Of a stretch of 64,000 nt of DNA, positions 5,310 through 39,444 are shown piece by piece. The translations under genes were made by a program, and so were the position numbers. The stretch comes from an uncultured Clostridia bacterium (GTDB lineage: Bacteria > Bacillota > Limnochordia > Darwinibacteriales > DTU012), in contig FIZJ01000007.1 in the NCBI GenBank assembly GCA_900019385.1, forward strand, positions 2,796-66,795, given 5' to 3'. Every line of letters begins with the position of its first letter. The first letter of the stretch is position 1. The notes under the pieces are model-generated. The model worked only from the letters and a program-made list of their open reading frames with translations, had not been told where the DNA came from and did not search any database.

Positions 5310-6230
5310 CTAGTAATTTCTGACAATAAGTTCCGAAATCAAGCCTCTTCCACGTCCATTGCAGTTTATGCTTCGCTTTGCGCGGACACGGTCAATAGTG
5401 AAACCTTGATAAAGACTGTCAAGAAAACTATCGTCAGCGTTTACCGCCTTTGGATCAGAATTGCTGAGCAGAAGCAGCGCTCCTATCTCGTCCAATTCTC
5501 GGAAATAGTGGGCTAGGCGAATCTGATCATCGTCTGTGAAATCATCCTTATTGTAGGTAGTGAAGCTGGCGGTTTTTGTCAGCGGACGGTAAGGCGGATC
5601 GAAATACCCTAAAGTTCCGGGGCCGATATAGGGCCTGGAACAGGTAAAATCGCCGCAGACCAGCTTGACGCCTGCCAATGCTCTGCTCACTGCTCTTATG
5701 TTGTCGGCATCACAGATTTTCGGCTTTTTATACCTGCCGTGGGGGACGTTGAACTCACCCTTGTGATTTTGACGAAACAAGCCGTTATAACAAGTCTTGT
5801 TTAGGAAAATCATATAGCTGGCCCGCACAATCCAGTCTTCGTTAAAAGACTGATAGTCAAATTGGTTCATCTGCTGGTTATATTGTTCCCGTATACCATA
5901 ATAAAACACTCGGCGCGCCTGGGAGCCCAATGCCAGATAGTCTCTTTCAAGCTTGCTCAAACACGCAATCAAAGCATCCGGTTCTTGCTGGACAACCTTA
6001 TAACCAAGTATCAATTCTCTGTTGATGTCAACCAAACAGGCATTTTCAATGACAAACATGCTCTTCAAATGAAAGAAAAAAGCTCCACCACCGATAAAGG
6101 GCTCCACATAGGTTTTGATTACGCCTGATTCTTTGATTTCACGCGGTAGACGGGCAGTCAACTCACGCAGCAGTTGGGTTTTACCTCCTGCCCACTTAAG
6201 AAAGGGTTTTGCCTGCACCGGTTTGTTCAC
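5310..6230 (-). CDS. dam: Dam-type (D12 class, alpha group) DNA N6-adenine methyltransferase, orphan
   Basis: 306-aa ORF with FLKWAGGK (AdoMet-binding motif I) and DPPY (motif IV) in alpha-group order. The gene is about 40% GC against about 60% flanking. Strong GGAGGAAGGGGGG ribosome-binding site. No restriction endonuclease nearby. Confidence 0.85.
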   Translation of the reverse strand: MNKPVQAKPFLKWAGGKTQLLRELTARLPREIKESGVIKTYVEPFIGGGAFFFHLKSMFVIENACLVDINRELILGYKVVQQEPDALIACLSKLERDYLALGSQARRVFYYGIREQYNQQMNQFDYQSFNEDWIVRASYMIFLNKTCYNGLFRQNHKGEFNVPHGRYKKPKICDADNIRAVSRALAGVKLVCGDFTCSRPYIGPGTLGYFDPPYRPLTKTASFTTYNKDDFTDDDQIRLAHYFRELDEIGALLLLSNSDPKAVNADDSFLDSLYQGFTIDRVRAKRSINCNGRGRGLISELIVRNY

Positions 6231-6371: not shown

Positions 6372-6416
6372 CGACATAAATAAAACCGCCCTGCGGCCTT
6401 GCGTCGAGGGCGGTTC
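6372..6416 (-). terminator. Rho-independent terminator of the AraC-corrinoid operon (minus strand)
   Basis: AACCGCCCT…AGGGCGGTT stem followed on the minus strand by TTTTATTTAT. Confidence 0.6.
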
Positions 6417-6426
6417 ATCAATTGTT

Positions 6427-7068
6427 TCACGCCATACTGGCACAGGCTTGAACAGCCACTTCCGCGGCGGACGCGGCATCAGGCGCGTAAAGGTCAGCGC
6501 CGATGCTGGCGCGGAATTGGTCGGTGACCGGCGCGCCGCCGATCATGATCTTGACCTTGTCTCTGATTCCCGCTGTTTTGGCGGCCTCCACGATCAGCTT
6601 CATTTCGTTCATGGTGGTTGTCAACAGCGCCGAACAGGCAATAATCTGCGCCTGCTCCTGAACAGCTGTCTCGATAAACTTCTCAACCGGCACATCAATA
6701 CCGAGGTCGATCACTTCGAGGCCTTTGCCTTCCATCATCATCCGCACCAGATTCTTGCCGATGTCATGGAGATCGCCCTTCACGGTGCCCAAGACCACTT
6801 TGCCTTTTGCCTTGACATCGTCCGAGACCAGCAGAGGCTTCAAAAGGGCGGTCCCGGCGTTCATGGCTCTAGCGGCAATCAGGACTTCCGGGACAAAAAT
6901 CTCGTTGTTTTTAAACTTGACACCGACAACGTCCATGCCGGCCATCAGGCCTTTTTCCAGAATCTCCTGGGCTGAAAACCCTTCGTCGATTGCCTGCTGC
7001 ACCAGTTCTTTGACAGCGCTGGCGTTTCCCTGCTGCAGTTTTAGGGAAATCTCATTCAGGATGCTCAT
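6427..7068 (-). CDS. Corrinoid (cobalamin-binding) protein, MtaC/MtbC-like: helical cap plus B12-binding Rossmann domain
   Basis: 213-aa ORF with the DxHxxG cobalamin-ligand motif (GDLHDIGKN) and the downstream glycine-rich MIGGAPV motif. GGAGGG ribosome-binding site. Co-oriented with, and 24 bp downstream of, the AraC gene. Confidence 0.8.
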   Translation of the reverse strand: MSILNEISLKLQQGNASAVKELVQQAIDEGFSAQEILEKGLMAGMDVVGVKFKNNEIFVPEVLIAARAMNAGTALLKPLLVSDDVKAKGKVVLGTVKGDLHDIGKNLVRMMMEGKGLEVIDLGIDVPVEKFIETAVQEQAQIIACSALLTTTMNEMKLIVEAAKTAGIRDKVKIMIGGAPVTDQFRASIGADLYAPDAASAAEVAVQACASMA

Positions 7069-7092
7069 CGTATACCCTCCAATACCAGTGTT

Positions 7093-8322
7093 TTATTTAA
7101 TCTGACCGCGTGTTTCCCTGAACTTGCCTGGAGTGGTTCCGGTCATTTTTTTGAACACCCGTGTGAAATAACTTTGGTCCTCAAACCCTACCAGGCTTGA
7201 TACGTCCGCCAGAGGGATAGCTTCGTTCACCAGCAGGTTTTTGCTCTTCTCGATCCGCACAGTGTTGAGATATGTGGTGAAATTGTAACCTGTTTCTTCC
7301 TTGAACAGCCTGCTGAAATAAGCCGGGCTTAAATGGACGTAGCTGGCTGCATCCTCGAGGGTTAGCCTTTCCATGTAGTTGTTGTTGGTGAATTCAATCG
7401 CCTTATATATTATATCCTTGTTTTTGACATTCTTAAAGTTAAACACACAGTCGGTGAAGCGGGTCAGGATTCTGGAGAGCCAGACGCTCAGCTCCTCAAT
7501 GTTGTGCAGGCGAGACACTTGGTTGAGGTATTGGTTGTTCAGACCGAAGATCTCTTCCTGTTCCGCCCCGCCTTCCATTGCCGCCCGGGAAAGAAGGACC
7601 ACAAGTTCCAACGACCGGTATTTTATATCCTCGAAGTCGTTTTGGCCGGTAAAAAACACGTAGCCCAGGATCTCGTTGAGCACTCGCAGGGATCCGGCTT
7701 TGTCGCCCACGGCCACATGTGAGATCAGCTCATTTTCCTTGTCGATTGGGTAATTCTTGTGTCTCGCCCCACCAAGGTAGGTTTGGGGATCGGAAGCGGG
7801 TATGGGGCTGTCCATAGGATCCGGCAAATGCCGTTTGTCATCTGCGGCTGCGTATCCGGCGAGCAGGTACAACAGTTCAGACAAGCTCGTAACCACATCA
7901 GGCTTGATTACCGGTATCTGATCCATGTGCGCTCTAAGCCGCCGCCGCGCTTTTTGATCCGGGATCTGCTGCTCGATGATTTCATCCAGCAGAAAGGCTT
8001 CCGGTTCTATCATCATCACCGGGCCGCCGACAAAAGCGCCCTTGAACTCCTCGCCGCGGTTGATGGGCGCCACCCAGTGAGTAAGCCCCATCGGGCAGAA
8101 GTAGATGTACCTGCCCCCAAACCGCTCCGCCTGATAACTGCCGTACAAATGGACGTTCGCACAATCGCACAAGTGGGCGAAACCATCCTGGACAGCTTCG
8201 CAGAACGGGCTGCAGCTTTTGAGGGCATGGTAGACAACGGACCCGGCGCCGTCGATAATGAAGCTGGAAACTCCCGTCGCCTTGCTGTAATGATCGATCC
8301 ACTGCCTGATCTCTTGAATCAT
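7093..8322 (-). CDS. AraC-family transcriptional regulator with an N-terminal PocR-type ligand-sensing domain
   Basis: 409-aa ORF. The C-terminal AraC helix-turn-helix pair is recognisable (…LEDAASYVHLSPAYFSRLFKEETG…IPLADVSSLVGFEDQSYFTRVFKKMTGTTP). The N-terminal ~200 aa resemble the PocR sensory domain. Confidence 0.75.
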   Translation of the reverse strand: MIQEIRQWIDHYSKATGVSSFIIDGAGSVVYHALKSCSPFCEAVQDGFAHLCDCANVHLYGSYQAERFGGRYIYFCPMGLTHWVAPINRGEEFKGAFVGGPVMMIEPEAFLLDEIIEQQIPDQKARRRLRAHMDQIPVIKPDVVTSLSELLYLLAGYAAADDKRHLPDPMDSPIPASDPQTYLGGARHKNYPIDKENELISHVAVGDKAGSLRVLNEILGYVFFTGQNDFEDIKYRSLELVVLLSRAAMEGGAEQEEIFGLNNQYLNQVSRLHNIEELSVWLSRILTRFTDCVFNFKNVKNKDIIYKAIEFTNNNYMERLTLEDAASYVHLSPAYFSRLFKEETGYNFTTYLNTVRIEKSKNLLVNEAIPLADVSSLVGFEDQSYFTRVFKKMTGTTPGKFRETRGQIK

Positions 8323-8462
8323 GTGCCCGCCCTTCCTTACCTTTCGGTTATATTCTAAACGATCCTGGAACCGGGATCAATGCGGCCGTGGAAAAAGTGC
8401 AGGGGAAAGGCGCCTTCGAGTAGAATAGACAAACAGGAACAAACCATGAGAGGGGAGACGCT

Positions 8463-9767
8463 ATGGGTTTCAAGCTTCGAGTTGGATTACTGGCAGTATT
8501 ATTGATATTGACATGTTCGCAGTTGGCAGGTGCGCAGTACAGCATTCCTCTCACTTCGCAGCGGGCATTCGAGGTTGCGGACAATATCATCGCCTGGCAG
8601 ACCGAGGCTGGTGGGTGGACCAAGAATACTGACTTCTCAAAGGTCATATACCAGCCGGGCATGTCCAGAGGAGAGCGGGCCATAAACGGCCAGGAAGCCG
8701 GGTGCTTCGACAACAATGCCAGCATCAACGAAATGAAGTTTCTAGCCATGATGTACGCACGGCACGGAATCGAGAAGTATCGGGACGCCGTCATCAAAGG
8801 CATCGACTGGATGCTGGACGCCCAGTACCCAAGCGGTGGCTGGCCGCAGTATTATCCGCTCATCGGCGGTTACCATGACAACGTGACCTTCAATGACGGC
8901 GCCATGATGAATGTGCTCAATTATATACAGGAGATCCTGAGGTACCGCGGGCTGTACGAGTTCTTGGGCGAAGAGCGCTTTGCCCGCCTGGAAGCCGCTT
9001 TGGAAAAAGGCATCGACTATATTCTCAAATCCCAGATCCGAGTCAACGGTTACCTCACAGCCTGGTGCCAGCAGCATGATCCAGTTACGTACGAACCGAA
9101 AATGGGGCGGAGCTATGAGCATCCGTCCATCGTCTCGGCGGAATCGGTCCCGATTGTGGAATTTTTGATGGCTCTGCCCGATCCGTCGGAAGAAGTGCGC
9201 CGGGCGATTGTGGGCGCGGTGGAGTGGTTTGAAATTTCCCAGCTGCCGAACGGCCAGTGGGCACGCTTTTACGATATTCAGTCCAATGTCCCGATCTTTT
9301 CGGGGCGGGACGGGATTATCCGCTATGACGTGAAAGACATCGAACTGGAGCGGCAGCAGGGTTACAGCTGGTTCAACGGCAGCGGCGGCAATCTATTGTC
9401 CAAGGCCCGGCGTGATGGGTACATTGACACGCTGCGGCAAAGCCTGCCCGATTACAAACCCCTCACCATCGATGTCTTCGCTGATCCGGCCGTTCCCAGG
9501 GTCATAAGCCCCAAGATCTGGCCCACTCAGACTGTAAGCGGCGTTCTCGCCGTCGAGGTCGAGATCTCCATGCGCAATCCGGAAAACCTGCGGGAAGTGG
9601 CCATCAAGATCAACAATCAAGAAATCTACCGCGGCAGCGATCTCCACATCCAGGTGCCGGTCGACACCACCGCGTTCCGCAATGGAACTTGCACCATCGC
9701 TGTAGAGACCACGACCACACTCGGGACATCCCTGTCCCACTACGTCAATTTCATTGTGGCAAATTAA
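8463..9767 (+). CDS. Secreted pectate lyase, PL10 family (PelA/Pel-15E type), with an extra C-terminal beta domain
   Basis: 434-aa ORF with a signal peptide (MGFKLRVGLLAVLLILTCSQLAGAQ). Motifs AWQTEAGGWTKN and YPSGGWPQYY are typical of (alpha/alpha)3-barrel PL10 lyases. Confidence 0.7.
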   Translation: MGFKLRVGLLAVLLILTCSQLAGAQYSIPLTSQRAFEVADNIIAWQTEAGGWTKNTDFSKVIYQPGMSRGERAINGQEAGCFDNNASINEMKFLAMMYARHGIEKYRDAVIKGIDWMLDAQYPSGGWPQYYPLIGGYHDNVTFNDGAMMNVLNYIQEILRYRGLYEFLGEERFARLEAALEKGIDYILKSQIRVNGYLTAWCQQHDPVTYEPKMGRSYEHPSIVSAESVPIVEFLMALPDPSEEVRRAIVGAVEWFEISQLPNGQWARFYDIQSNVPIFSGRDGIIRYDVKDIELERQQGYSWFNGSGGNLLSKARRDGYIDTLRQSLPDYKPLTIDVFADPAVPRVISPKIWPTQTVSGVLAVEVEISMRNPENLREVAIKINNQEIYRGSDLHIQVPVDTTAFRNGTCTIAVETTTTLGTSLSHYVNFIVAN

Positions 9768-9780
9768 AACCAGACAACAA

Positions 9781-9825
9781 GGCCAACTTCAAGCCCTGTG
9801 GACTTGCAAGTTGGCCTTTCTTTTT
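9781..9825. terminator. Bidirectional rho-independent terminator between the convergent PL10 and URO-D genes
   Basis: GGCCAACTT-gap-AAGTTGGCC hairpin followed by TTTCTTTTT. It overlaps the stop codon of the minus-strand gene. Confidence 0.6.
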
Positions 9826-10909
9826 ACACCGGCTCTTTCACGGCTTCAAACAGCGCCTCGATATTCGCCGGATCCACATCGGGAAGAATCGCTTCATGGC
9901 TCGGCGAGATAATCAGGCCAGTGGGGAAGATGCGTTTCAACTCCTGCACCTTGTCTTTGACCTGCTTAGGGGTGCCGTTGATCAAGAGCCACTGGGCGTC
10001 CACACCGCCGCAGAAAGAGACTTTGTCGCCGAAATCCCGCTTCAATCTCTCCGGTTCCATGTCTTTGGCCAAGGCCTGAATAGGATGGATGACATCGACG
10101 CCTGCGGCAATCAGATCGGGAATGACGGGATAGATTGATCCACAGGAATGATAAATAACCTTCAACCCGTAACTCTTGGCCTGTTCAATGAATTTCCTGG
10201 TACCCGGCATGACAAATTCCCGTATCGCATCCGGAGAGACCATCAATCCCCGCTGGCTGCCGAAGTCATTGCCGATCAGAATGGCGTCCAGCTTGCCTTT
10301 GGTGGCGCTGTAGAAGATCTCGTTGGCTTCAAGGTAGAACTGGGTGATGCGGTCGATTACAGCCCGGAACATTTCCGGCTCGGTCAGCATCTTCACCAGA
10401 GCGGTTTCCATGCCGAAGGCCGAACAGGCGTCTTGAAAGTGCGCCGACCACAAAACGCCCATGATTGGGTGGCCTGGCGGCGCGGCCTCCACCGCTCGGC
10501 GGCATCGGTCCGGATCAATATGTTTCGCCGGATCGGGCCAGTCGAAGTCATCAACGCGGCTGGGATCGGAATAGTCTTCAAAGAAGCCGGGCGCAGTCAG
10601 AGTCCTTTGATCGGGTGTGTTAGCCTTTTTGGCAAACTGAAGGGCGGTGTAAATCGCCTTGCTGTCGGGGGCGTCATAGGGGATCTCCACCGGATAGATG
10701 TCGTCCCCGATCTTTAGTTTCAGCTCGTCGATATCGCCGACGTCGAAATAGGCAAAGAGCCGTTCGCAGGCTTCCGGCACAGGCAGGCCAAGCCAAGACG
10801 CGGGCCTGTCCACCGGCCTTCTTTCCACTGTGGCGAAAAAACGTTCCTTAGGATCCATGGCATTCTTCCTTTCTCGCAGCAAATACCGGTCACTGAATTG
10901 ATTCACCAT
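9824..10909 (-). CDS. Uroporphyrinogen decarboxylase (URO-D)/MtaA-like family methyltransferase
   Basis: 361-aa ORF. N-terminal KERFFATVERRPVDRP and the HSCG motif (IYHSCGSIYPVIPDLIAAGVDVIHP) are characteristic of URO-D/MtaA/CmuA-family proteins. Confidence 0.72.
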   Translation of the reverse strand: MVNQFSDRYLLRERKNAMDPKERFFATVERRPVDRPASWLGLPVPEACERLFAYFDVGDIDELKLKIGDDIYPVEIPYDAPDSKAIYTALQFAKKANTPDQRTLTAPGFFEDYSDPSRVDDFDWPDPAKHIDPDRCRRAVEAAPPGHPIMGVLWSAHFQDACSAFGMETALVKMLTEPEMFRAVIDRITQFYLEANEIFYSATKGKLDAILIGNDFGSQRGLMVSPDAIREFVMPGTRKFIEQAKSYGLKVIYHSCGSIYPVIPDLIAAGVDVIHPIQALAKDMEPERLKRDFGDKVSFCGGVDAQWLLINGTPKQVKDKVQELKRIFPTGLIISPSHEAILPDVDPANIEALFEAVKEPV

Positions 10910-11015: not shown

Positions 11016-13226
11016 ATGATGATCGAGATGGTAAAAGTGGAAGCTGGTTCCTTTAAAATGGGCGGAGGCGATCTGAAAGACAGGCCCGACGCGCTCCCGG
11101 TGCATACGGTCACCATCACCAGGGATTTCTGGATCGCCAGGGAACCGATCAAATACGAACTCTTCGCCAGGTTTTGCCGCGAAGAGCTGGGAACTGAACC
11201 CGACGCCGAAAACTTATTGGGATATGTGGTCGGGATCAGCTGGCACGACGCAGACCGGTTCTGCGCCTGGCTCAGCGCCAAGACAGGACTGCCTTACCGC
11301 CTGCCTACCGAGGCGGAATGGGAGTACTGCGCCAGAAACAGCCGGCGCTTCGGGATTGACCGGATGTGTGACATGAATATCAGAGAATGGTGTTTTGACT
11401 GGTATGACGCATATAGTCCCGAAGAGCAGGCCGATCCGGCAGGTCCTGATTCAGGCATGTTCAAGGTTGTCCGGGGCGGCTTCCTGGACAACCCGGCCAA
11501 GTTCAACGCCTACTATTTGGATGTCTGGGCCAGGGGGTCGCTGCCGCCGCATTACCGGCATTTCCCGGGAGACCCCAACGATTTCGGCCGGCACAATGTG
11601 GGCTTTAGGGTTGTGCAGGCAGAGCCGGTGCAGACCAACGGGAAAAACGTTGTCATACCCCTGTCCCTCCATGTCCGGCAGCACCGTCCCCGGACTGAGA
11701 TCACTACCGAAAAGCCCTACTTTAGAAAGCGCCGTTTGTTTCCAATCCCGCCGGATACGGCCAGTCCCGAGGCTGTCAGGGCTTTTGGGCTAAATCCGCT
11801 TCTGCGCCACCACAACCATTCACCTGGGTTCGATGTGGCGCCGAATGGCGATTTGATTGTCTCAATCTATTCGTCCTACCACGAGTATGATCCGGAAGTG
11901 GGGCTGATGGGCGCAAGGCTGCGATATGGCGCCGATGAGTGGGAAATGCCGGATATCTGGCTGAACGCTGTGGGGGTCAACGACCACGCCCCTTTGCTTT
12001 TTACCGACCGCGACGGCACAATCTATCATTTCTGGGGATGGCCCCAATTAGACAATGCCTTTCCGTTTCAGTTCGTCTACTCCAAAGACAGCGGTGCCAC
12101 CTGGAGCCCGGTCCAGTTCCCGAAGTTCGCGGATCGGGCGGAGAAAGTGGCCAGCCAGCCTATCAATACGGTGGTCCATGCCGAAGACGGCTGGTACTAT
12201 GTGCCCTGCGATGTCCAGGGCGAGTCTGCCTCGATTTTGTGGCGCTCCATAGATTTGATCAACTGGGAGGTGCCGCGGGGCAAGACTGCGGGAAGGCACA
12301 GCGCTGTGGTGGAGCTCAAGGACGGCCGGCTGCTGGCGATAGGCGGCAAAAACACCAGCATCTACGGATACATGCCGCAGGCCATCTCCACCGATAAAGG
12401 CGACAGTTGGACAGTGAGCAAGACGCCGTTTCCGGCCATGAGCTCAGGCCAGCGCCCCTGTGTGATCCGGCTGCAGAGCGGAAGACTACTTTACTGCGGT
12501 GATTTTCAGAATAAGCAGGGTAACAGGCCGCCGGGCGCCGCCGAGGATCAATGGGGTTCGTTCGTCGCCTACTCGGAAGATGAAGGCGCGACCTGGAAGA
12601 TCAAAAAGCTGTGGGGCACTCAGCACAAGAAACAGGATCCGGCTCAATTGGGCGGAGCCCATACGCTGGGCTACAGCGTATGCCGGCAGTCGCCGGACGG
12701 GCTGATCCATGTCATCACCTCCAACAACCGGCCCTGCCTGCATCTTTGCTTCAACGAAGCGTGGCTCCTGGCCGACACCGACGGCATATGCCCGAGTGAC
12801 GAGGAACTGATGCGCGAGGACACGGTGGAAATCTCCAATGTCACAACTTATCAGGAGCGCTACGCCGACGGCGGCGTCAAATGTGTCTATTCCGGCGGCA
12901 CTGCTCCCGACGGGCGCTTCCTGCTCCACGGAGAAGAAAAATGGTATTATCCGTCGGGTGAATTGATGACTGAGGCGCGGTACCAGTTCGGCAGGCGCGT
13001 AGGCGCTTACACCCACTACAGCCCGGAAGGCCGCAAGATTTGGGAGTGGGAATACCTGGATGATCATGTTTCCCTCTACAAAACTTACTACACAAATGGC
13101 GGGCTCAGGACGGTAGGGCGTTACCGAAACCGAATCGCCGAAGGGTGGGCGGAACGATATGAGCCCGATGGGAAGCTGGCGGCCCGGGCTCTGTTTGAAA
13201 ACGGGGAGATCGTCAAGGTTGAATAG
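11016..13226 (+). CDS. Multidomain protein: FGE-sulfatase (SUMF1-type) domain + BNR/sialidase-like beta-propeller + MORN-like repeats
   Basis: 736-aa ORF. N-terminal ~200 aa carry formylglycine-generating-enzyme-family motifs (WCFDWY, RVVRGGFL, NVGFRVV). The middle has Asp-box/BNR repeats (SKDSGATW, SEDEGATW). The C-terminus has YwqK/MORN-type repeats. No signal peptide. Confidence 0.6.
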   Translation: MMIEMVKVEAGSFKMGGGDLKDRPDALPVHTVTITRDFWIAREPIKYELFARFCREELGTEPDAENLLGYVVGISWHDADRFCAWLSAKTGLPYRLPTEAEWEYCARNSRRFGIDRMCDMNIREWCFDWYDAYSPEEQADPAGPDSGMFKVVRGGFLDNPAKFNAYYLDVWARGSLPPHYRHFPGDPNDFGRHNVGFRVVQAEPVQTNGKNVVIPLSLHVRQHRPRTEITTEKPYFRKRRLFPIPPDTASPEAVRAFGLNPLLRHHNHSPGFDVAPNGDLIVSIYSSYHEYDPEVGLMGARLRYGADEWEMPDIWLNAVGVNDHAPLLFTDRDGTIYHFWGWPQLDNAFPFQFVYSKDSGATWSPVQFPKFADRAEKVASQPINTVVHAEDGWYYVPCDVQGESASILWRSIDLINWEVPRGKTAGRHSAVVELKDGRLLAIGGKNTSIYGYMPQAISTDKGDSWTVSKTPFPAMSSGQRPCVIRLQSGRLLYCGDFQNKQGNRPPGAAEDQWGSFVAYSEDEGATWKIKKLWGTQHKKQDPAQLGGAHTLGYSVCRQSPDGLIHVITSNNRPCLHLCFNEAWLLADTDGICPSDEELMREDTVEISNVTTYQERYADGGVKCVYSGGTAPDGRFLLHGEEKWYYPSGELMTEARYQFGRRVGAYTHYSPEGRKIWEWEYLDDHVSLYKTYYTNGGLRTVGRYRNRIAEGWAERYEPDGKLAARALFENGEIVKVE

Positions 13227-13350: not shown

Positions 13351-14751
13351 ATGAAAAATGGTGTGATATTCGGCAACAGAAGCTTCTTTGCGGATGAGCT
13401 GTGTCTGGACGGGAGGAGGCGGCTGCTTGGAGTGCTGCAAGAGGCGGGTGTCACTCCTGTAATCCTGCCGGAAGACGTGGGAGCCTACGGGAGTGTGCAA
13501 AACCGGGAACAGGCCTTGAAGTGCGCCGCTTTGTTCAAGGAACACGATGATCTTAAGGGAGTGATCATATCCCTGCCCAACTTCGGCGATGAGAAATCCA
13601 TCGTCACCGTCCTTCGGGAAGCGAAAATCGATGTGCCGATTTTGGTCCATGCCTTCAACGACCACCTCGACAGACTCAACTATGAAAACCGCCGCGACAG
13701 TTTCTGCGGCAAAATCTCTGTCTGCAACAATCTGCGCCAATATGGGTTCAAGTTTACCCTGACCACCCTGCATACAGTAGATCCGGAAAGCCCTGTTTTC
13801 AAGCAGGACCTGCAGCGTTTTCTAGCTGTCTGCCGTGTTGTGGGCACGCTTAAGGGCGCTCGGATCGGGCTGGTGGGTGTAAGGCCCGCGGATTTCAACA
13901 CCGTCCGCTTCAGCGAAAAGATCCTGGAACACCACGGCATTTCTGTGGAACCAATCGGCCTGATTGATGTGATCGGCAAGATCGATGAGCTTGGCGACGC
14001 CGAAGCCCAACCGGCTGTGGAAGAAATCAAGGGTTACATGTCCACCGACAGTGTGCCGGAGGATGCCCTGGCGAAGATGGCCAAGCTTTTGGTTGTGCTG
14101 CGGGAGTGGGTCAGGGGCAATGATCTGCACGCAGTGGCCATCCAGTGCTGGGATTCGCTCCAGCGCTATCTGGGGATCAACTCCTGCGCTGTCATGAGCA
14201 TGCTTTCCCAAGCCGGTGTTCCGGCCGCTTGCGAAAGCGACGTCGCCGGCGCCGTCAGCATGCTGGCGCTGCAGGCGGCAAGCGGTATGCCCAGCGCTCT
14301 TGTCGACTGGAACAACAACTATGCCGATGATCCTGACCGTTTCGTCCTGTTCCACTGCGGCAACTTCGCCAAGGAGTTCTACGATTGCGCTTCCTGCCGG
14401 CCGGTGATCGATTACCCGCCGATTCTGGCCTCGACCCTGGGGCAGGAAAACACCTACGGTGCCATCGACGGCAGAATGAAGCCCGGCAAGGCAACCTTCG
14501 CCAGGATCACCACCGATGATCTCACTGGCACGATCCGGGCCTACTGTGCAGAAGGGCAGGTCACCGATGATTCTCTGGCCACTTTTGGTTCTTGGGGCGT
14601 GGTCAAGGTCCCGGGGCTGCAGAAACTGATGCGCTATATCTGTGAAAATGGGTTTGAACACCATGTGGCGATGAGTTTGGCCAGTGTGGCCGATGTCTTG
14701 GCGGAGGCATTGGGCAAGTACCTCGGCTGGGATGTCTATCATCACGCTTAG
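13351..14751 (+). CDS. L-fucose/L-arabinose isomerase-family sugar isomerase (FucI-like, about 470 aa type)
   Basis: 466-aa ORF with a GGAGG ribosome-binding site. It resembles the short FucI-like isomerase family. Its substrate cannot be assigned from sequence. Confidence 0.5.
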   Translation: MKNGVIFGNRSFFADELCLDGRRRLLGVLQEAGVTPVILPEDVGAYGSVQNREQALKCAALFKEHDDLKGVIISLPNFGDEKSIVTVLREAKIDVPILVHAFNDHLDRLNYENRRDSFCGKISVCNNLRQYGFKFTLTTLHTVDPESPVFKQDLQRFLAVCRVVGTLKGARIGLVGVRPADFNTVRFSEKILEHHGISVEPIGLIDVIGKIDELGDAEAQPAVEEIKGYMSTDSVPEDALAKMAKLLVVLREWVRGNDLHAVAIQCWDSLQRYLGINSCAVMSMLSQAGVPAACESDVAGAVSMLALQAASGMPSALVDWNNNYADDPDRFVLFHCGNFAKEFYDCASCRPVIDYPPILASTLGQENTYGAIDGRMKPGKATFARITTDDLTGTIRAYCAEGQVTDDSLATFGSWGVVKVPGLQKLMRYICENGFEHHVAMSLASVADVLAEALGKYLGWDVYHHA

Positions 14752-14765
14752 GCGGAGGGATTGGT

Positions 14766-15428
14766 GTGAAGAAACTGGTGGCGGTTTACACAGGGCAGGG
14801 GCTGGCGGAGCCTTTGGCGCGGTTGATCCAGGCTGAGCTGCCCAATGTCCAACTGGTGAATATTATCGATGACGGGCTGATTCATGATGTGATCAAAGCC
14901 AGTGGTGTGACCAAGCCCATCGCCAGGCGGCTGGTCAAGTACTATCAAATCGCGGCGGAGATCGGCGCCGATCTGATCTTAAACACTTGTTCGTCAGTGG
15001 GCGAAGTGGTTGAACTCGGCAGACAAATTGTGGATGTCCCGATTGTAAGAATTGATGAACCTATGGCCAGAGAGGCGGCGGCCAACTATCAAAGGATCGG
15101 AGTCATCGCCACTCTGCCGACGACACTAAGGCCTACAGCCAGGCTGGTCCAAGCTCAGGCTCACGCCATGGGCAGGGAAGTCACGATTGTGGACGGCCTT
15201 GCGGATGGGGCGTACCAGGCCTTGATCAGCGGCCGAGCAGAGGAGCATGACAAGCGGATCATGGATGTGGGGCGCAGCCTGGCCCAGAAAGTGGATTGCA
15301 TTGTCCTGGCCCAGGCTTCGATGATGAGGATGCAGCAAACCCTGGTAGAAGCGGCACAGCTTCCGGTCCTGTCAAGCCCGCCGTTGTGTGCGGCCTATCT
15401 TAAATCGCTGCTGGAGCGTGGCGGTTGA
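14766..15428 (+). CDS. Asp/Glu/hydantoin racemase-family protein (possible sugar epimerase/isomerase)
   Basis: 220-aa ORF with GTG start and a GGAGGGA ribosome-binding site. It has a two-Cys architecture (NTCSSVG…) like PF01177-type racemases. Confidence 0.45.
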   Translation: MKKLVAVYTGQGLAEPLARLIQAELPNVQLVNIIDDGLIHDVIKASGVTKPIARRLVKYYQIAAEIGADLILNTCSSVGEVVELGRQIVDVPIVRIDEPMAREAAANYQRIGVIATLPTTLRPTARLVQAQAHAMGREVTIVDGLADGAYQALISGRAEEHDKRIMDVGRSLAQKVDCIVLAQASMMRMQQTLVEAAQLPVLSSPPLCAAYLKSLLERGG

Positions 15429-16255
15429 TGCTGAGCCAAACTGTGAAAGAACTGGAGAAAACCGCGCGGCAGATCCGGCGCGACATTATCACCATGATTT
15501 ACCAGGCGGGGGATGGTCATCCCGGCCCGAGCTTGTCGTGCGCGGATCTGGTCACTGCGCTCTACTTCGCTGTCATGAATGTCGAACCGGCGGATCCGCA
15601 CTGGCCTCGGCGGGATCGCCTGATTCTCTCCAAAGGCCATGCATGTCCCGCGGTCTATGCCGCCTTGGCCAGAAAAGGCTACTTCGATGCCGCCGAGCTG
15701 CCCAGGCTGCGCAGTTTAGGCAGCATCCTCCAGGGACACCCTGATATGCTTAAGACGCCCGGGATTGATTTTAGCTCCGGCTCGCTGGGCAACGGGATCA
15801 GCGCCGGGCTGGGTATGGCTTTGGCCGCCAGAATCAGCGGGCTCGATTACCATACTTATGTTATTTGCGGTGACGGCGAGCTGCAGGAAGGTATAGTCTG
15901 GGAAGCGGCCATGGCTGCCAAACGCTATCAGGTTGGTAATTTAACCGTTCTGGTAGACTACAACGGTGTCCAAAGCGGGGGCCGGATCGAAGAGATCAGC
16001 GGTTTGGAGCCGCTTGTCCCCAAATGGGAAGCGTTCGGGTGGCACTGCCAGGAGATCGATGGCCATGACTTCACCGAGATCCTCACTGCCATTGCAGAGG
16101 CCAAAGCAGTGCCTGACAGGCCGTCGGTGATTGCGGCCCGCACCGTCAAAGGCAAAGGTGTCTCATTTATTGAAAACAACAATGCCTGGCACAAACGAGT
16201 GCCCACCAGAGAGGAATGGGAGCAGGCCATGAAAGAGTTGGGAGCTGAAGATTGA
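15428..16255 (+). CDS. Transketolase, N-terminal (TPP-binding) subunit of a split transketolase, copy 1
   Basis: GDGHPGPSLSCADL and SKGHACPAVYA motifs. The ATG overlaps the upstream stop (TGATG). Confidence 0.85.
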   Translation: MLSQTVKELEKTARQIRRDIITMIYQAGDGHPGPSLSCADLVTALYFAVMNVEPADPHWPRRDRLILSKGHACPAVYAALARKGYFDAAELPRLRSLGSILQGHPDMLKTPGIDFSSGSLGNGISAGLGMALAARISGLDYHTYVICGDGELQEGIVWEAAMAAKRYQVGNLTVLVDYNGVQSGGRIEEISGLEPLVPKWEAFGWHCQEIDGHDFTEILTAIAEAKAVPDRPSVIAARTVKGKGVSFIENNNAWHKRVPTREEWEQAMKELGAED

Positions 16256-17211
16256 TGCAGTACTCAAGCACCAGAGAGGCTTTTATCAACAGCCTGACTG
16301 AGCTCGCAGGCCGGAACCGGAAGATCGTCCTGGTCTGCGCCGATTCGGCGAAAGTGATCCGGGCCGATGGTTTTGCCGACCGGTTTCCCGAACGGTTCAT
16401 CGATGTAGGCATCGCAGAGCAGAATGCTGTGGCCTGCGCCTCCGGAATGGCGTCTTGCGGCCTTGTTCCTTTTGTCGCCACATATGCCGGGTTCATCACG
16501 ATGCGGGCCTGCGAACAAGTGCGGACTTTTGCGGCATATCCCAACCTCAACGTGAAGATGGTGGGGGCAAACGGCGGAATCGGCGCTGGAGAGCGTGAAG
16601 GTGTCACCCACCAGTTTTTCGAGGACTTGGGGATTCTCCGGACCATCCCCGGCGTCACCATCGTTGTTCCAGCCGATGCTTCCCAGGTGGGAAAAGCGGT
16701 GGAGGTGATCGCCGATATCCCGGGCCCAGCCTACATCCGAATCGGCAGCGGCCGCGATCCAGTCGTGTTTGACGAGGATCTCCCGTTTGAACTGGGTAAA
16801 ATCCGTATTCTTAAGGCGTACGGCGAGGATGTAGCCGTTTTTGTCAACGGGCACGCCATCCCCCGGGCCCTGGCGGCGGCAGAAGGCCTTAAGGCGCTTG
16901 GGATCAAGGCCATGGTGGTGGAAGTCCACACCCTCAAGCCTTTGGATTCGGAAGCCATCGCCGATGTGCTCAAGCTAACGGGAGCGGCAGTCACAGTCGA
17001 GGATCACAACATCATCGGCGGGCTGGGAAGCGCCGTTGCAGAGGTGATCGCCGAGCGCGCTCCGGTTCCCTTGTCCCGGATCGGGATAGAGGATCGGTTC
17101 CCCGAGTCCGGTGATGCGGAACAGCTCATGGACGCGTACGGATTAAGTGTTGATGATATTATGGATGCGTGCAGGCGCGCAGTGGGCAGAAAAGAAAGGA
17201 GATCATCATGA
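16255..17211 (+). CDS. Transketolase, C-terminal (pyrimidine-binding) subunit, copy 1
   Basis: Recognisable Pyr-binding and C-terminal transketolase domain sequence (…FIDVGIAEQNAV…). The start overlaps the upstream stop. Confidence 0.85.
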   Translation: MQYSSTREAFINSLTELAGRNRKIVLVCADSAKVIRADGFADRFPERFIDVGIAEQNAVACASGMASCGLVPFVATYAGFITMRACEQVRTFAAYPNLNVKMVGANGGIGAGEREGVTHQFFEDLGILRTIPGVTIVVPADASQVGKAVEVIADIPGPAYIRIGSGRDPVVFDEDLPFELGKIRILKAYGEDVAVFVNGHAIPRALAAAEGLKALGIKAMVVEVHTLKPLDSEAIADVLKLTGAAVTVEDHNIIGGLGSAVAEVIAERAPVPLSRIGIEDRFPESGDAEQLMDAYGLSVDDIMDACRRAVGRKERRSS

Positions 17212-18260
17212 GTCACGGCTACTTCCACAGGGTGGCCCGGCAAAGCCCCACCCGGCTTTGGATCAACAACCCCACTCAGGAGGAGGCCCGCAAAGCGATC
17301 GCCGCAGGAGCCATCAGCTGCACCACCAATCCTACATACACTGCCAAGATGCTCCAGGAAGAATCGGAAAAAGACGCTGTAATGGGCGTTATTGATCAAG
17401 TCACATCCACAGCCGGGGACGATGCCAAGGCGGCTTCGGAGATCCAGCGGCAGGTAATCAAGCCTTTGGTGGAAATTTTCTCTCCCCTTTACGCCAAAGA
17501 CCCGCATCAGGGTTTTGTCTCGATTCAAGGCGATCCTTACGCCGAGGATGACTATGCCAACATCGTCGAAGCAGCCTTGGCGGACCGGGCCTTGGGCGAA
17601 AATGTGATCGCCAAGATTCCGGTGACAGCGGCAGGGCTCAAGGCGATTGAACACTTGATTTGGGAAAATGTGCCGATTATCGCCACAGAGGTGATGGCCA
17701 TAAGCCAGGCCACAGCTGTGTGTGAACTGTACGAGCGCACCTGTGCAAGGACGGGCAGAAGGCCGCCGCTTTTTGTCACTCATATCACCGGGATTTTTGA
17801 CGAATACCTGCACAATCTGGCTTGTCAAGAAGAAATACCCATTGCCAAGGATATTCTATGGCAGGCTGGAACCATTGTGGCCCGCAAACAGTACAAACTG
17901 CTGAAAGAACGGGGATATCAAGTGACCATGCTCGGCGGTGGAGCCCGAGGCTTGCACCATTTCACCGAAATGGTCGGCGGCGACATCCATGTGACCATCA
18001 ACTGGCGGGGAGCCGCGGAGGAACTGGTGCGCCGGGATCCGCCGGTGGTCTACCGGATGGACACACCAATCCCTGACTACGCAGTCAACGAACTGCTGCG
18101 CATTCCCGTCTTCAGGATGGCTTTTGAGGAAGGCGGGCTGGCGGTGGAAGAGTTTGCCGATTACGGGCCTGTGCGCTATTTCCGCGATAGTTTCGAAGCT
18201 GGTTGGAGTGCTCTTTTGGAGGCGATTGCGGCACGGCGAAAAGAACAAGAAGGATCATGA
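17208..18260 (+). CDS. Transaldolase-family protein
   Basis: 350-aa ORF with an AAAGGAGA ribosome-binding site. SCTTNPT motif, as in the transaldolase/F6P-aldolase SxxT[ST]NP signature. Confidence 0.6.
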   Translation: MSHGYFHRVARQSPTRLWINNPTQEEARKAIAAGAISCTTNPTYTAKMLQEESEKDAVMGVIDQVTSTAGDDAKAASEIQRQVIKPLVEIFSPLYAKDPHQGFVSIQGDPYAEDDYANIVEAALADRALGENVIAKIPVTAAGLKAIEHLIWENVPIIATEVMAISQATAVCELYERTCARTGRRPPLFVTHITGIFDEYLHNLACQEEIPIAKDILWQAGTIVARKQYKLLKERGYQVTMLGGGARGLHHFTEMVGGDIHVTINWRGAAEELVRRDPPVVYRMDTPIPDYAVNELLRIPVFRMAFEEGGLAVEEFADYGPVRYFRDSFEAGWSALLEAIAARRKEQEGS

Positions 18261-18270
18261 AGGAGTGGGT

Positions 18271-18618
18271 ATGGCGATGGCCGAGAAAGAGTTTCACAAG
18301 CGTTTGCATGAAGAAAAGACAGTGGAGATGCTGCCGGGCGTTTTCCGCACCACTTTGGCGTACAATGGGGCGCTGATGCTGTGCCACTTTCACATGAAGA
18401 AGGGGGCCAAGATCCCTCTCCACAGCCATGAAGCGGCTCAAATCGGCTATGTGATCAAAGGGAAAGTGCGCTTTTTCACCAAGGATGGGCAGGATATCGT
18501 TGTCGAGCCCGGTTCCAGCTACGTCTTTGATTCCCGCCAAGAGCACGGCTCGGATGTGCTGGAGGATACAGAGCTGATCGAATGCTTCACCCCGATGCGG
18601 CCTGAGTACATTGTGTGA
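18271..18618 (+). CDS. Cupin-domain protein (possible sugar isomerase/epimerase)
   Basis: 115-aa ORF with a GGAGTGGG ribosome-binding site. His-rich two-motif cupin pattern (HSHEAAQIGYVIKG…EHG). Confidence 0.55.
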   Translation: MAMAEKEFHKRLHEEKTVEMLPGVFRTTLAYNGALMLCHFHMKKGAKIPLHSHEAAQIGYVIKGKVRFFTKDGQDIVVEPGSSYVFDSRQEHGSDVLEDTELIECFTPMRPEYIV

Positions 18619-19670: not shown

Positions 19671-20507
19671 GTGATACCCTTGGCTGATCTGGGGCTTTTG
19701 ACCAAGAAAGCACTGCAGACCCGCATTGCCATTCTGAAGATGATTTACCAGGCGAAAGGCGGCCACATTGGAGGGGCCTTTTCCTGCACTGATATTTTGG
19801 TGACACTTTATTATGCCGTGATGCGCATCGATCCCCACAACCCCCGCTGGGAAGGCCGGGATCGGTTCGTTTTGAGCAAAGGCCACAGTGTGGAAGGACT
19901 GTACGCGATTTTGGCTGATTTGGGGTTTTTCCCCAAAGAGGAATTGGACTCTTACCGCGGTTTTCATTCGCGCTTGATCGGCCATCCCACAAACAGAGTA
20001 CCGGGGATCGAAGTGAACACCGGCGCCCTCGGGCACGGTTTGTCAGTGGGTGTGGGCATGGCGCTGGCTGGAAAAATGGACGGCAAAGACTACAAAGTCT
20101 ATGTCCTGATGGGCGATGGGGAACTGGCGGAAGGCTCGGTTTGGGAAGCGGCCATGGCCGGCAGCCATTACAAGCTGGACAATTTGATCGGGATTGTGGA
20201 CCGCAACCGGCTGCAGATCGGCGGCAGCACCGAGGATGTGATGGCCCTTGAGGACCTGAGAGCGAAGTGGCAGGCCTTCGGTTGGGAGGTTCTGGAGTGC
20301 GGCGGCCATGATTTCCAGAACCTGGTGGAGACATTCGGCAAAATCCCGGCTGTGTCTGGAAAGCCGCATGTGGTTATCGCCAATACCGTCAAGGGCAAAG
20401 GCGTCTCGTTCATGGAGCACCAGGCTGGATGGCACCACCGGGTCCCCAATGAGGAGGAGTACGCCCAGGCGCTGCAGGAGCTGGAGCATATGATGGGAGC
20501 GGTTTAA
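19671..20507 (+). CDS. Transketolase N-terminal subunit, copy 2
   Basis: KGGHIGGAFSCTDIL and SKGHSVEGLYA motifs. Paralog of 15428-16255. Confidence 0.85.
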   Translation: MIPLADLGLLTKKALQTRIAILKMIYQAKGGHIGGAFSCTDILVTLYYAVMRIDPHNPRWEGRDRFVLSKGHSVEGLYAILADLGFFPKEELDSYRGFHSRLIGHPTNRVPGIEVNTGALGHGLSVGVGMALAGKMDGKDYKVYVLMGDGELAEGSVWEAAMAGSHYKLDNLIGIVDRNRLQIGGSTEDVMALEDLRAKWQAFGWEVLECGGHDFQNLVETFGKIPAVSGKPHVVIANTVKGKGVSFMEHQAGWHHRVPNEEEYAQALQELEHMMGAV

Positions 20508-20509
20508 GT

Positions 20510-21454
20510 ATGAAGAAGACCAATAAAATGCCATGCCGGAAAGCGTTCACAGAAACTCTCTTGGAACTGGCCCGAAAAGACAGGGACATTGTCGCCCTGA
20601 CCAGCGATGCCAGGGGTTCCGTGACTTTGGAGCAGTTTGCCAAGGAACTGCCGGAGCAGTTTGTGGAAGTGGGCATTGCCGAGCAGAACTTGGTGGGAAT
20701 TGGGGCTGGTTTGGCCGCCTGCGGCAAGAAACCGTTTGTCTGCGGCCCCGCCTGTTTCCTTTCTGCCCGCAGCCTTGAGCAGGTCAAGGTGGATGTGGCC
20801 TACAGTGATTTGAATGTGAAGATAATTGCCGTAAGCGGTGGTGTCAGCTACGGGGCTTTGGGTTCGACCCATCACGCCGTCCATGACCTGGCGGTGATGC
20901 GGGCGATTCCCAACCTGACTGTCGTGCTGCCGTGCGACGTGCATCAGACCAGGAAGCTCACGGAAGCCCTGGTTGATTACAAAGGCCCGGTTTATGTGCG
21001 CATGGGCCGGGGAGCGGTCGCCGACGTGTACTCGGAAGCTCACGTTCCTTTCGCAATCGGGCGGGCCAATGTCCTTCTCGACGGCAAGGACCTGGCAATC
21101 ATCGCCGCGGGCGAGACGGTGCGCCACGCGCTGGATGCGGGCTTGGCCTTGAAAAAACAGGGTGTAAGCGCCCGGGTGATCGACATGCACACGATCAAAC
21201 CGCTGGATCAGGAAACAGTGCTGCAGGCTGCCTGTGACACTGGAAACCTGATCACTGTTGAAGAGCACAGCGTTTACGGCGGCCTTGGATCGGCCGTGGC
21301 CGAGTTGGTGGCCCAGAATTATCCGGTGCGGATGCGGATTCTGGGCATACCGGACGAGCCTGCCGTCACCGGAGAATCATCCCAGGTGTTCAAGTATTAT
21401 CAGCTGACAGGCGACGAGATCGTCCAGGCGGCCTTGGCCATGCTGGATGTGTGA
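20510..21454 (+). CDS. Transketolase C-terminal subunit, copy 2
   Basis: …FVEVGIAEQNLVG…; paralog of 16255-17211. Confidence 0.85.
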   Translation: MKKTNKMPCRKAFTETLLELARKDRDIVALTSDARGSVTLEQFAKELPEQFVEVGIAEQNLVGIGAGLAACGKKPFVCGPACFLSARSLEQVKVDVAYSDLNVKIIAVSGGVSYGALGSTHHAVHDLAVMRAIPNLTVVLPCDVHQTRKLTEALVDYKGPVYVRMGRGAVADVYSEAHVPFAIGRANVLLDGKDLAIIAAGETVRHALDAGLALKKQGVSARVIDMHTIKPLDQETVLQAACDTGNLITVEEHSVYGGLGSAVAELVAQNYPVRMRILGIPDEPAVTGESSQVFKYYQLTGDEIVQAALAMLDV

Positions 21455-21468
21455 AAGGAGACAGAAGT

Positions 21469-24497: not shown

Positions 24498-24502
24498 AGG
24501 GT

Positions 24503-25822: not shown

Positions 25823-25829
25823 CAGCGCG

Positions 25830-37131: not shown

Positions 37132-37231
37132 GTAAGCAATTTAAGAATGAAACAAACGAACTGTTAAGTAAATTGTTTAGTTGTCTGTTTGGTCAGTGGC
37201 TGTCGACAGGTTTCGCCGAGGAGGACTCTTT

Positions 37232-39397: not shown

Positions 39398-39444
39398 TAC
39401 TTAGCGTCCGCGTTTCAGAAATTCTATTGCAGGGAGCGATCACC

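Follow-up and report, generated by a model that had tools for sequence, protein, structure and literature searches.

The aromatic O-demethylases, which include the Odm and Vdm systems of Acetobacterium dehalogenans, MtvABC of Moorella thermoacetica, and Dhaf_4610-4612 of Desulfitobacterium hafniense with its activating enzyme, are among the described systems that come closest to the genes reported here. In these systems, a substrate-specific methyltransferase I (MT I) from the UroD superfamily works with a corrinoid protein of the MtaC type, and they further comprise a second methyltransferase and an ATP-dependent reductive activator of the RACo type. OdmB and VdmB are UroD-superfamily O-demethylases (PMC10418091). 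In Eubacterium limosum, the PocR-AraC activator MtaR is encoded next to the mta genes and is required for growth on methanol (PMC13602510). We analyzed a 64-kb stretch of DNA from an uncultured Clostridia bacterium (hereafter the window; contig C7:2796-66795 of genome G000, which has 2.17 Mb and is 97.7% complete), in which a stand-alone corrinoid protein, a PocR-AraC regulator, and three proteins related to uroporphyrinogen decarboxylase (URO-D), here called UROD1, UROD2, and UROD3, are encoded in a locus for plant cell-wall glycans. The region probably encodes some components of a cobalamin-dependent system, dispersed over the genome, that would remove O-methyl groups from methylated cell-wall sugars. 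An initial annotation of the same DNA had named such a system as a candidate; the computational checks that it suggested came out in its favor, and the idea gains further support from gene neighborhoods, co-occurrence across genomes, gene fusions, and a single run of genes in Clostridium thailandense PL3.

The four kinds of gene that make up an aromatic O-demethylase are all present in the window genome and form one cluster in C. thailandense. The ether would be different, an alkyl (sugar) ether in place of an aryl ether. In the window genome, moreover, the genes are spread over at least three contigs, stand in loci of carbohydrate-active enzymes, and include no full pterin-binding methyltransferase II (MT II) that we could find. 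MtaABC/MtaR of E. limosum resembles the present genes in that a PocR-AraC activator accompanies a corrinoid protein of the MtaC type and a URO-D enzyme of the MtaA type; the present genes differ in that MtaB was not found in the window genome, the regulator has only 409 amino acids, and extra URO-D-fold paralogues lie in sugar loci. A demethylase that unblocks a methylated monosaccharide within a polysaccharide utilization locus is already known, namely the P450 enzyme acting on 6-O-methyl-D-galactose in marine porphyran and agar loci (Reisky et al. 2018; PMC6292453, PMC10033563). The P450 enzyme uses O2 and ferredoxin and frees formaldehyde, whereas the system proposed here would be anaerobic, would pass the methyl group to cobalamin, and has an unrelated fold.

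The apparatus for rhamnogalacturonan II (RG-II) of Bacteroides thetaiotaomicron, the subject of Ndeh et al. in 2017, reportedly frees methylated sugars and leaves the fate of the methyl groups undescribed. Related loci share GH139 with this apparatus, the window shares a GH106-like enzyme, GH2, and a BT_1020-like propeller, and a Bacteroidia locus described below shares GH141 and GH78. In the paper on GH139 (BT0984; PMC12282258), the word "demethyl" is absent and the fate of methyl-fucose is not discussed, and a paper from 2025 states that the mechanism of anaerobic sugar demethylation is still to be discovered (PMC12316285). PMC10418091 mentions no link to carbohydrates. In the literature searched, which covered few subscription journals, no paper described corrinoid-dependent sugar demethylation, and the sole route found was the O2-dependent P450 of marine aerobes (PMC6292453). 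All component families are known; the novelty would lie in a methyl ether of a sugar as the substrate, in the hub-and-spoke arrangement within glycan loci, and in an MT I family that Pfam does not model. The features on which the comparison turns are these:

6427-7068, minus strand: stand-alone MtaC/MtgC-type corrinoid protein of 213 amino acids (Pfam B12-binding_2 and B12-binding).
6382-6400, minus strand: terminator-like hairpin after the corrinoid gene.
7093-8322, minus strand: MtaR-like activator of 409 amino acids with an N-terminal PocR domain and a C-terminal AraC helix-turn-helix domain (Pfam PocR, HTH_18, HTH_AraC), first gene of a putative two-gene operon.
8323-8462, no strand: intergenic region from which the regulator operon and PL10 diverge, with a promoter-like site at 8380-8352 (minus strand).
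9824-10858, minus strand: UROD1, enzyme of the URO-D fold that has an H-x-C motif, proposed MT I for methyl transfer from a methyl sugar to the corrinoid protein (Pfam URO-D; the open frame extends to 10909).
9777-9799, minus strand: terminator-like hairpin after UROD1.
23382-24497, plus strand: UROD3, URO-D fold with an H-x-D motif, proposed second MT I (AlphaFold2 model; fusions within its family).
50508-51653, plus strand: UROD2, with an H-C-C motif (Pfam URO-D, 39 bits, cut-off 23.9), between a 907-amino-acid protein without Pfam match and a GFO/IDH/MocA oxidoreductase.

The corrinoid protein contains the sequence GDLHDIGKN, as had been noted before, and Pfam assigns it a B12-binding fold (PF02607, residues 4-77, 76 bits; PF02310, residues 89-200, 93.5 bits). 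The set of His-on cobalamin motifs is complete (D99-L-H101-D-I-G, S146-A-L, and G177-G). Among NCBIfam models, it comes closest to MtgC and pyl_corrinoid, under the cut-off in both cases; the scores were 201.2 for TIGR02370 (cut-off 215.3), 227.8 for MtgC (NF047996; cut-off 370), 186.5 for MtbC (cut-off 350), and 133.7 for MtaC (cut-off 420). Judged by these comparisons, the protein is of the methyltransferase type, yet outside every named substrate-specific group. Orthologues and paralogues of it adjoin RACo and MtaA-like genes. The regulator gene (PF10114 PocR, residues 2-158, 86 bits; PF12833, residues 326-403) lies 25 bp upstream on the same strand. Co-transcription of the two genes, claimed in the initial annotation, is plausible because of this spacing, the promoter-like site upstream, and the terminator-like hairpin downstream. 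The same annotation took 6427-10909 together; this stretch is not one operon, as UROD1 is convergent with PL10 and has its own terminator-like hairpin. When nine upstream regions were compared by k-mers for a shared operator of the regulator, they had no 9-mer in common and one uninformative 8-mer. Homologues of the regulator (33-42% identity) sit between RACo and a corrinoid gene in other genomes, and by its architecture and cluster position we class it as a putative MtaR-type activator.

Much of the machinery that such a carrier would need is encoded elsewhere in the genome. Contig C49 has four genes in a row, for a corrinoid protein (59% identical to that of the window), an MtaA-like URO-D protein (181 bits, full length), a Met_synt_B12-like protein, and RACo (L001:3655-5451; Fer2, Raco_middle, and RACo_C_ter domains). 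The order [Met_synt_B12-like]-RACo-PocR/AraC-corrinoid protein-MtaA-like URO-D is found in nine genomes from two other families of the same order (G012, G014, G016, G025, G029, G032, G035, G038, and G040), and the spirochaete Oceanispirochaeta has RACo-PocR/AraC-corrinoid protein (42% and 63% identity). The regulator-corrinoid pair of the window is thus a relocated piece of a cross-phylum module, with the remainder on C49. We did not adopt a type 1 mlp cluster as the identity of the C49 module, which has a single URO-D gene where Mlp2 and Mlp3 together define such clusters (Kountz and Balskus; PMC10418091).

Within the genus of the window, the module is split, and the regulator gene and a copy of the corrinoid gene adjoin PL10 in G000, G003, and G004. 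The sole small corrinoid protein of G001 is the orthologue of that in the window (84% identity), encoded without the regulator about 9 kb from PL10-UROD1, and the MtaA-like/Met_synt_B12-like/RACo cluster of this genome has no corrinoid protein of its own. Hence, a window-type protein must serve that module in G001. Searches of G002 found neither UROD1 nor RACo nor a small corrinoid protein.

The window itself encodes neither RACo nor a pterin methyltransferase, in line with the initial annotation. Its suggestion that the missing parts may be encoded elsewhere holds for RACo and an MtaA-like protein (C49) and for a homocysteine S-methyltransferase (contig C11); a full pterin-binding MT II (methyl-corrinoid:tetrahydrofolate methyltransferase) was not found in G000. 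The C11 protein (C11:164139-165503, minus strand; L136:6140-7504) has 454 amino acids, a complete homocysteine S-methyltransferase domain, and the first half of a pterin barrel, and the latter is the sole Pterin_bind match in the genome (positions 7-117 of the 244-position model). MetE, MetF/MTHFR, and a full MetH were likewise not found in this 97.7%-complete genome. Methionine synthesis may therefore depend on the separately encoded corrinoid proteins; alternatively, the amino acid may be imported.

Four genomes of the same order (G009, G012, G014, and G016) have very large expansions of the URO-D family. G009 (2.7 Mb, 86% complete) has 13 UROD1 matches at E <= 1e-20 and 47 first-look candidates, with only two B12-binding_2 proteins and one RACo, a proportion that fits many donor-specific enzymes feeding few carriers. 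Genome G000 contains five URO-D genes by Pfam, plus UROD3.

Translation of UROD1 probably starts at M18 of the open frame (position 10858), which follows an AGGAAG ribosome-binding site and matches the length of the orthologues (340-346 amino acids). The assignment of 9824-10909 and 50508-51653 to the URO-D family in the initial annotation was correct (PF01208, 93 bits for UROD1 and 39 bits for UROD2, cut-off 23.9), with the UROD1 match limited to the C-terminal two thirds of the model. A genuine HemE, which that annotation had considered as the case against its own proposal, is not what these genes encode: UROD1 scored 21 bits with TIGR01464 (cut-off 303), and UROD2 and UROD3 had no match. 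The structural model of UROD1 has a pLDDT (predicted local distance difference test) score of 94 and its best structural match is MtaA (4ay7); models of UROD1 and UROD3 matched 4ay7 and HemE structures at TM (template modeling) scores of 0.6-0.7. H254-S-C256 of UROD1 aligns with the H-x-C residues that bind zinc in MtaA 4ay7. In alignment A1, the histidine is invariant (His238, His254 of the full open frame) and the cysteine nearly so (Cys240, Cys256 of the full open frame).

We asked in which company UROD1 occurs. Orthologues with 57-86% identity are present in at least five phyla, including Bacillota (Mahella, Acetivibrionales, Monoglobales, Oscillospiraceae, Clostridium thailandense, and C. 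grantii), Bacteroidota (Bacteroides, Tannerella, Prolixibacteraceae, Mangrovibacterium, Gaoshiqia, Roseimarinus, and Rikenellaceae), Spirochaetota, Victivallales/Lentisphaeria (Lentisphaerota), and Opitutaceae (Verrucomicrobiota). The context was read in 71 loci across Bacillota, Bacteroidota, Spirochaetota, Lentisphaerota/Victivallales, and Verrucomicrobiota. UROD1 is followed by rhaM, of the L-rhamnose-mutarotase family, in 32 of these, and a GH139 homologue is present in 10, mostly as the next gene; further close neighbors are GH29, GH95, RhaT, SSF, monosaccharide-binding proteins, and AraC regulators. The GH139 neighbor in Gaoshiqia matches PDB entry 9HYQ with an E value of 2.9e-280; 9HYQ and 9HMB are structures of GH139 2-O-methyl-fucosidases (PMC12282258).

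Three loci illustrate these neighborhoods. In Mahella australiensis, the UROD1 orthologue stands between a Fucose_iso_C gene directly upstream and DUF4432, with a sugar ABC transporter upstream and GH141 nearby. A run in C. thailandense PL3 encodes the parts of a monosaccharide importer (Peripla_BP_4 binding protein, ABC ATPase, and two permeases), then UROD1, RhaM, a corrinoid protein, a full Pterin_bind protein of 268 amino acids, a chemotaxis receptor, and a RACo of 821 amino acids. In it, the four components of a bacterial O-demethylase are encoded beside the importer. A locus in a Bacteroidia metagenome-assembled genome contains rhaM, an MtaB-family gene, GH31, a UROD3-family gene, UROD1, rhaM, RhaT, SSF, S-methyl_trans, a transposase, a corrinoid protein, a Met_synt_B12-like protein, GH141, MFS, and GH78.

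An open frame of about 200-275 amino acids with B12-binding_2, besides MetH, is present in all 29 of the UROD1 genomes searched (29/29). Of 251 Bacteroidales genomes sampled evenly, 15 encode UROD1 and 50 a stand-alone corrinoid protein, and all 15 fall within the 50; the hypergeometric probability of this overlap, 4.6e-12, makes the case look stronger than it is, as related genomes are not independent. GH139 was intended as a negative control for this co-occurrence and failed as one, being itself associated with corrinoid modules: among 20 genomes with GH139, 14 encode a stand-alone corrinoid protein and another 3 a fused one of about 1000 amino acids. Long frames of about 1000-1250 amino acids in the Bacteroidales genomes G089, G205, and G229 have a corrinoid domain that is far closer to the stand-alone Bacteroidia protein (E values of about 1e-47 to 1e-50) than that of MetH is. 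They are probably P0329-type fusions, and GH139 is present in all three genomes.

UROD3 has no Pfam match (PF01208 included) and no NCBIfam match. Its earlier description as a more divergent URO-D protein is right at the level of the fold, as the AlphaFold2 model (pLDDT 96.5) matches HemE and MtaA structures at a TM score of about 0.6. The family comprises 2245 representative clusters at E <= 1e-3, some members of which are labeled "trimethylamine corrinoid protein 2" or "metH" in some sources, and its invariant residues include H264-x-D266 in place of H-x-C. Three fusions connect it to corrinoid domains: a protein of 975 amino acids (Pterin_bind, B12-binding_2, B12-binding, and UROD3-like), one of 995 amino acids (UROD3-like, S-methyl_trans, B12-binding_2, and B12-binding), and one of 615 amino acids (UROD3-like, B12-binding_2, and B12-binding). 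The 995-amino-acid protein copies MetH with a URO-D-fold domain in the place of the pterin module, which argues for a donor-side (MT I) role. UROD3-family fusions thus repeat the layout of MetH, the modules of which are separate genes in the window genome (homocysteine S-methyltransferase, B12-binding_2 with B12-binding, and an activation-domain-like protein). Unlike in MetH, the donor module has a URO-D fold and not a full pterin barrel, and reactivation would proceed via RACo. In Bacteroidota, the UROD3 family adjoins GH31, with the order GH141-GH31-UROD3 family-corrinoid protein in Bacteroides sp. 214, and UROD3 of the window is 35% identical to the Bacteroidia protein encoded between GH31 and the UROD1 orthologue.

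Orthologues of UROD2 are 59-86% identical; of the two contexts read, one is a sugar-ABC locus and the other is not. UROD2 scored 25 bits with the MtaA/CmuA methylcobamide:CoM methyltransferase family (TIGR01463, NF040654; cut-off 235). Two more URO-D paralogues of G000, C18:5716-6759 and C21:14926-16071 (L002 and L003), have H-x-D and not H-x-C and are located in sugar loci, one after two ABC permeases and a xylose-isomerase-like TIM-barrel gene and the other near GH35 (about 0.9 kb downstream).

The window is a pectin/RG-II type locus. It encodes glycan-cleaving enzymes (GH106-like, PL10, PL1, GH31, GH29, GH42, GH2, GH43-like, and a BT_1020-like propeller), sugar-catabolism proteins (two split transketolase pairs, transaldolase-like, DUF1537 kinase, PdxA, and a Fucose_iso_C isomerase), and two ABC uptake systems. 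Three of these genes have the following positions:

8463-9767, plus strand: PL10 pectate lyase (Pfam Pec_lyase, 318 bits), divergent from the regulator and convergent with UROD1.
13351-14751, plus strand: Fucose_iso_C-type sugar isomerase of 466 amino acids, 2.4 kb from UROD1.
29827-32103, plus strand: GH31 glycosidase, 48% identical to the Bacteroidota GH31 that adjoins a UROD3-family gene, 5 kb downstream of UROD3.

The PL10-UROD1 pair is retained in three genomes of the genus. The nearest relatives of the window genome in the genome collection are the metagenome-derived "Bacillota bacterium" isolates AS08sgBPME_46 and AS21ysBPME_219.

Several other genes surround these. Directly upstream of UROD3 and UROD2, respectively, are genes for proteins of 638 (21451-23367, plus strand) and 907 amino acids (47765-50488, plus strand) without Pfam match, which may be unrecognized glycosidases that free methylated sugars. 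Divergent from UROD1 is an unusual fusion of 736 amino acids (11016-13226, plus strand; 81% identity in G003) with an FGE-sulfatase-like domain, a BNR_2 sialidase-like propeller, and a MORN repeat. Two further genes, for a 738-amino-acid NHL/TPR/Yip1 membrane protein (37181-39397, plus strand) and a 967-amino-acid DUF5696 protein (39394-42297, plus strand), are flanked by a binding-protein gene on one side and two permease genes on the other, and in G004 a Yip1/NHL homologue is encoded about 540 bp upstream of UROD1 as its closest neighbor on that side. A Dam-family N6-adenine DNA methyltransferase (5310-6230, minus strand; TIGR00571, 266 bits) is encoded between the GH106-like and corrinoid genes, and no restriction-enzyme gene was seen among the annotated neighbors. 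It has the same place in G003 (82% identity) and was undetected in the syntenic stretch of G004, and so looks like a variable insertion. The catabolic genes at 15425-17211 and 19671-21454, together with 17169-18260 and 24368-26891, encode the two split transketolase pairs (N- and C-terminal subunits), the transaldolase-like protein, the DUF1537-type kinase (SBD_N and NBD_C), and the PdxA-family dehydrogenase. This set resembles published pathways for D-apiose and acid sugars and would fit the use of RG-II. Before the GH43-like gene, a small open frame (18260-18610, plus strand) under the length cut-off of the open reading frame list seems to read through, with a cupin-like motif by eye.

No Rfam family, the cobalamin riboswitch included, was found in the window, and RF00174 (cobalamin riboswitch) was not found in the whole genome. 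With neither a riboswitch nor the corrinoid synthesis genes CobS and CbiD found, the cobamide must be imported; an importer was not searched for.

Putting these components together, we propose the following route. The PocR-AraC activator, recognizable by its architecture and operon, would sense a small methylated or hydroxylated ligand and turn on its own operon. The corrinoid protein, with its His-on motifs, is predicted to carry cob(I)alamin. In UROD1, a site of His254-x-Cys256 and His338 would probably hold a Lewis-acid metal that polarizes the ether oxygen, as zinc does in MtaB/MtaA, and the enzyme would demethylate a free methylated 6-deoxyhexose with Co(I) as the methyl acceptor, yielding the plain sugar and methyl-Co(III). 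The genomic context points to 2-O-methyl-L-fucose from chain B of RG-II as its likeliest substrate, an assignment that we make tentatively. UROD3 may act likewise on another methyl sugar tied to GH31/GH141, possibly 2-O-methyl-D-xylose or its fucose disaccharide, and UROD2 is perhaps a third MT I. Methyl sugars of plant cell walls had been proposed as substrates from the start; among them, the methylated 6-deoxyhexose and xylose of RG-II are now the most likely ones and 4-O-methyl-glucuronate is less likely. Either or both of two proteins could discharge the methyl-Co(III) protein, namely the C49 MtaA-like enzyme and the 454-amino-acid protein of C11. As MetE, MTHFR, and full MetH were not found, a tetrahydrofolate route is unlikely and homocysteine (giving methionine) or another thiol is the likelier sink. 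The cluster of C. thailandense, an acetogen, has a pterin methyltransferase instead. RACo and the Met_synt_B12-like protein of C49, families of known function, are expected to reactivate oxidized Co(II), and demethylated fucose may enter an isomerase pathway via the Fucose_iso_C protein encoded at 13351.

A number of observations weigh against a sugar O-demethylase. A corrinoid gene is present within 10 kb of UROD1 in just 7 of the 71 loci, and the corrinoid pair next to UROD1 is an arrangement specific to the genus of the window. UROD1 has its own terminator-like hairpin and so is monocistronic, outside the corrinoid operon. It scored 53 bits with the MtaA/CmuA model of NCBIfam (cut-off 235), and at the position of the third zinc cysteine of MtaA, the UROD1 clade has Ser-His-Glu. 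GH139 and rhaM were not found in the window genome by tblastn, and the bacterium may therefore rely on methyl sugars released by neighbors or on an unrecognized glycosidase. That GH139 is itself associated with corrinoid proteins fits the hypothesis, yet shared ecology or lineage may add to the signal. The link to corrinoids is weakest for UROD2, consisting of family membership and one sugar-locus context. CobS and CbiD, as stated above, were not found. The chemistry is also demanding, since alkyl methyl ethers, with sugar alkoxides, have poorer leaving groups than aryl ethers, with phenolates; methanol activation by MtaB shows that such chemistry is possible. Finally, gene content, motifs, folds, synteny, fusions, and co-occurrence are observed, and from these we infer the substrate, the direction of transfer, the acceptor, and all catalytic steps.

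Several of these points would be accommodated if the URO-D paralogues were corrinoid-independent sugar enzymes (decarboxylase, isomerase, or hydrolase) and the corrinoid operon a chance neighbor from an unrelated methyl-transfer or split methionine-synthase system. The monocistronic UROD1 gene, the genus-specific adjacency with most UROD1 loci lacking a corrinoid gene within 10 kb, and the cofactor-free nature of the founding members of the URO-D fold all agree with this, and with a homocysteine S-methyltransferase present and MetE/MetH not found, the corrinoid module could serve methionine synthesis alone. We nevertheless regard it as rather unlikely, since a stand-alone corrinoid protein accompanies UROD1 in 29 of 29 genomes and in 15 of 15 Bacteroidales against a background of 50 in 251, UROD1 shares its H-x-C motif with MtaA, and the sister family UROD3 is fused to corrinoid domains. 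Moreover, in C. thailandense, UROD1 lies in one run with a corrinoid protein, a pterin methyltransferase, and RACo, and a corrinoid gene is near in several Bacteroidota.

Slightly less probable still is a genuine corrinoid system with a donor other than a sugar, such as methanol from pectin, methoxylated aromatics from pectin or lignin, or methyl-sulfur compounds, in which case the position in glycan loci would reflect the shared plant cell wall. Pectin does yield methanol, the MtaR type of regulator is known from methanol operons (PMC13602510), and an MtaB-family gene is present in the Bacteroidia locus; MtaA-like clusters without a tetrahydrofolate methyltransferase have been tied to methyl-sulfur and methyl-selenium metabolism (PMC10418091). 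Methanol and aromatics need neither mutarotases nor sugar transporters, however, and UROD1 is tied to GH139, RhaM, RhaT, fucosidases, and monosaccharide ABC transporters, sometimes as the next gene. A methanol route via MtaB was rejected for the window genome, where MtaB was not found. By far the least probable reading is the alternative raised in the initial annotation, a B12- or light-sensing pair of corrinoid and PocR-AraC proteins (a split CarH-like logic) that controls the pectin genes. The two genes do share an operon divergent from PL10, and B12 sensing could help an organism that seemingly makes no corrinoid and in which no riboswitch was found. Pfam detects no DNA-binding domain in the corrinoid protein, though, its CarH score is 28.5 bits against a cut-off of 400, and its best matches are corrinoid families of methyltransferases. 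The low CarH score and the known MtaR-type arrangement make a sensor pair unlikely, and the regulator homologues and corrinoid proteins are conserved inside RACo/MtaA-like modules across phyla. In G001, furthermore, the orthologous corrinoid protein occurs without the regulator, as the only partner for the RACo/MtaA-like cluster.

Returning to the cobalamin-dependent demethylation of sugars, we consider a broader picture to have somewhat less than an even chance of being right in all its parts. Anaerobes of at least five phyla would strip methyl ethers from RG-II sugars (2-O-methyl-L-fucose and probably 2-O-methyl-D-xylose) via cobalamin, with several substrate-specific URO-D-fold families, one of them without a Pfam model and comprising more than 2000 clusters, feeding one shared module of corrinoid protein, activase, and acceptor. 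Genome-reduced fermenters in which MetE, MetF, and full MetH were not found would pass the methyl groups to homocysteine, forming methionine.

Methyl-ether sugars such as 2-O-methyl-fucose and 2-O-methyl-xylose of RG-II, 4-O-methyl-glucuronate, and algal methyl-galactoses block ordinary sugar catabolism. Cultured carriers of the genes, among them C. thailandense PL3, M. australiensis, Gaoshiqia hydrogeniformans Z1-71, Mangrovibacterium lignilyticum, and Roseimarinus sediminis DSM 28824, make a direct test possible. If the proposal is true, it names the enzymes of the missing anaerobic demethylation step, an oxygen-free counterpart of the P450 sugar demethylases, and accounts for the fate of the methylated sugars of RG-II. 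Two large protein groups, whose present annotation is "uroporphyrinogen decarboxylase family" or "hypothetical", would gain a function, and corrinoid O-demethylation would be widened from aryl to alkyl methyl ethers. Overall, the supply of vitamin B12 would then be tied to the fermentation of pectin and RG-II in guts and digesters.

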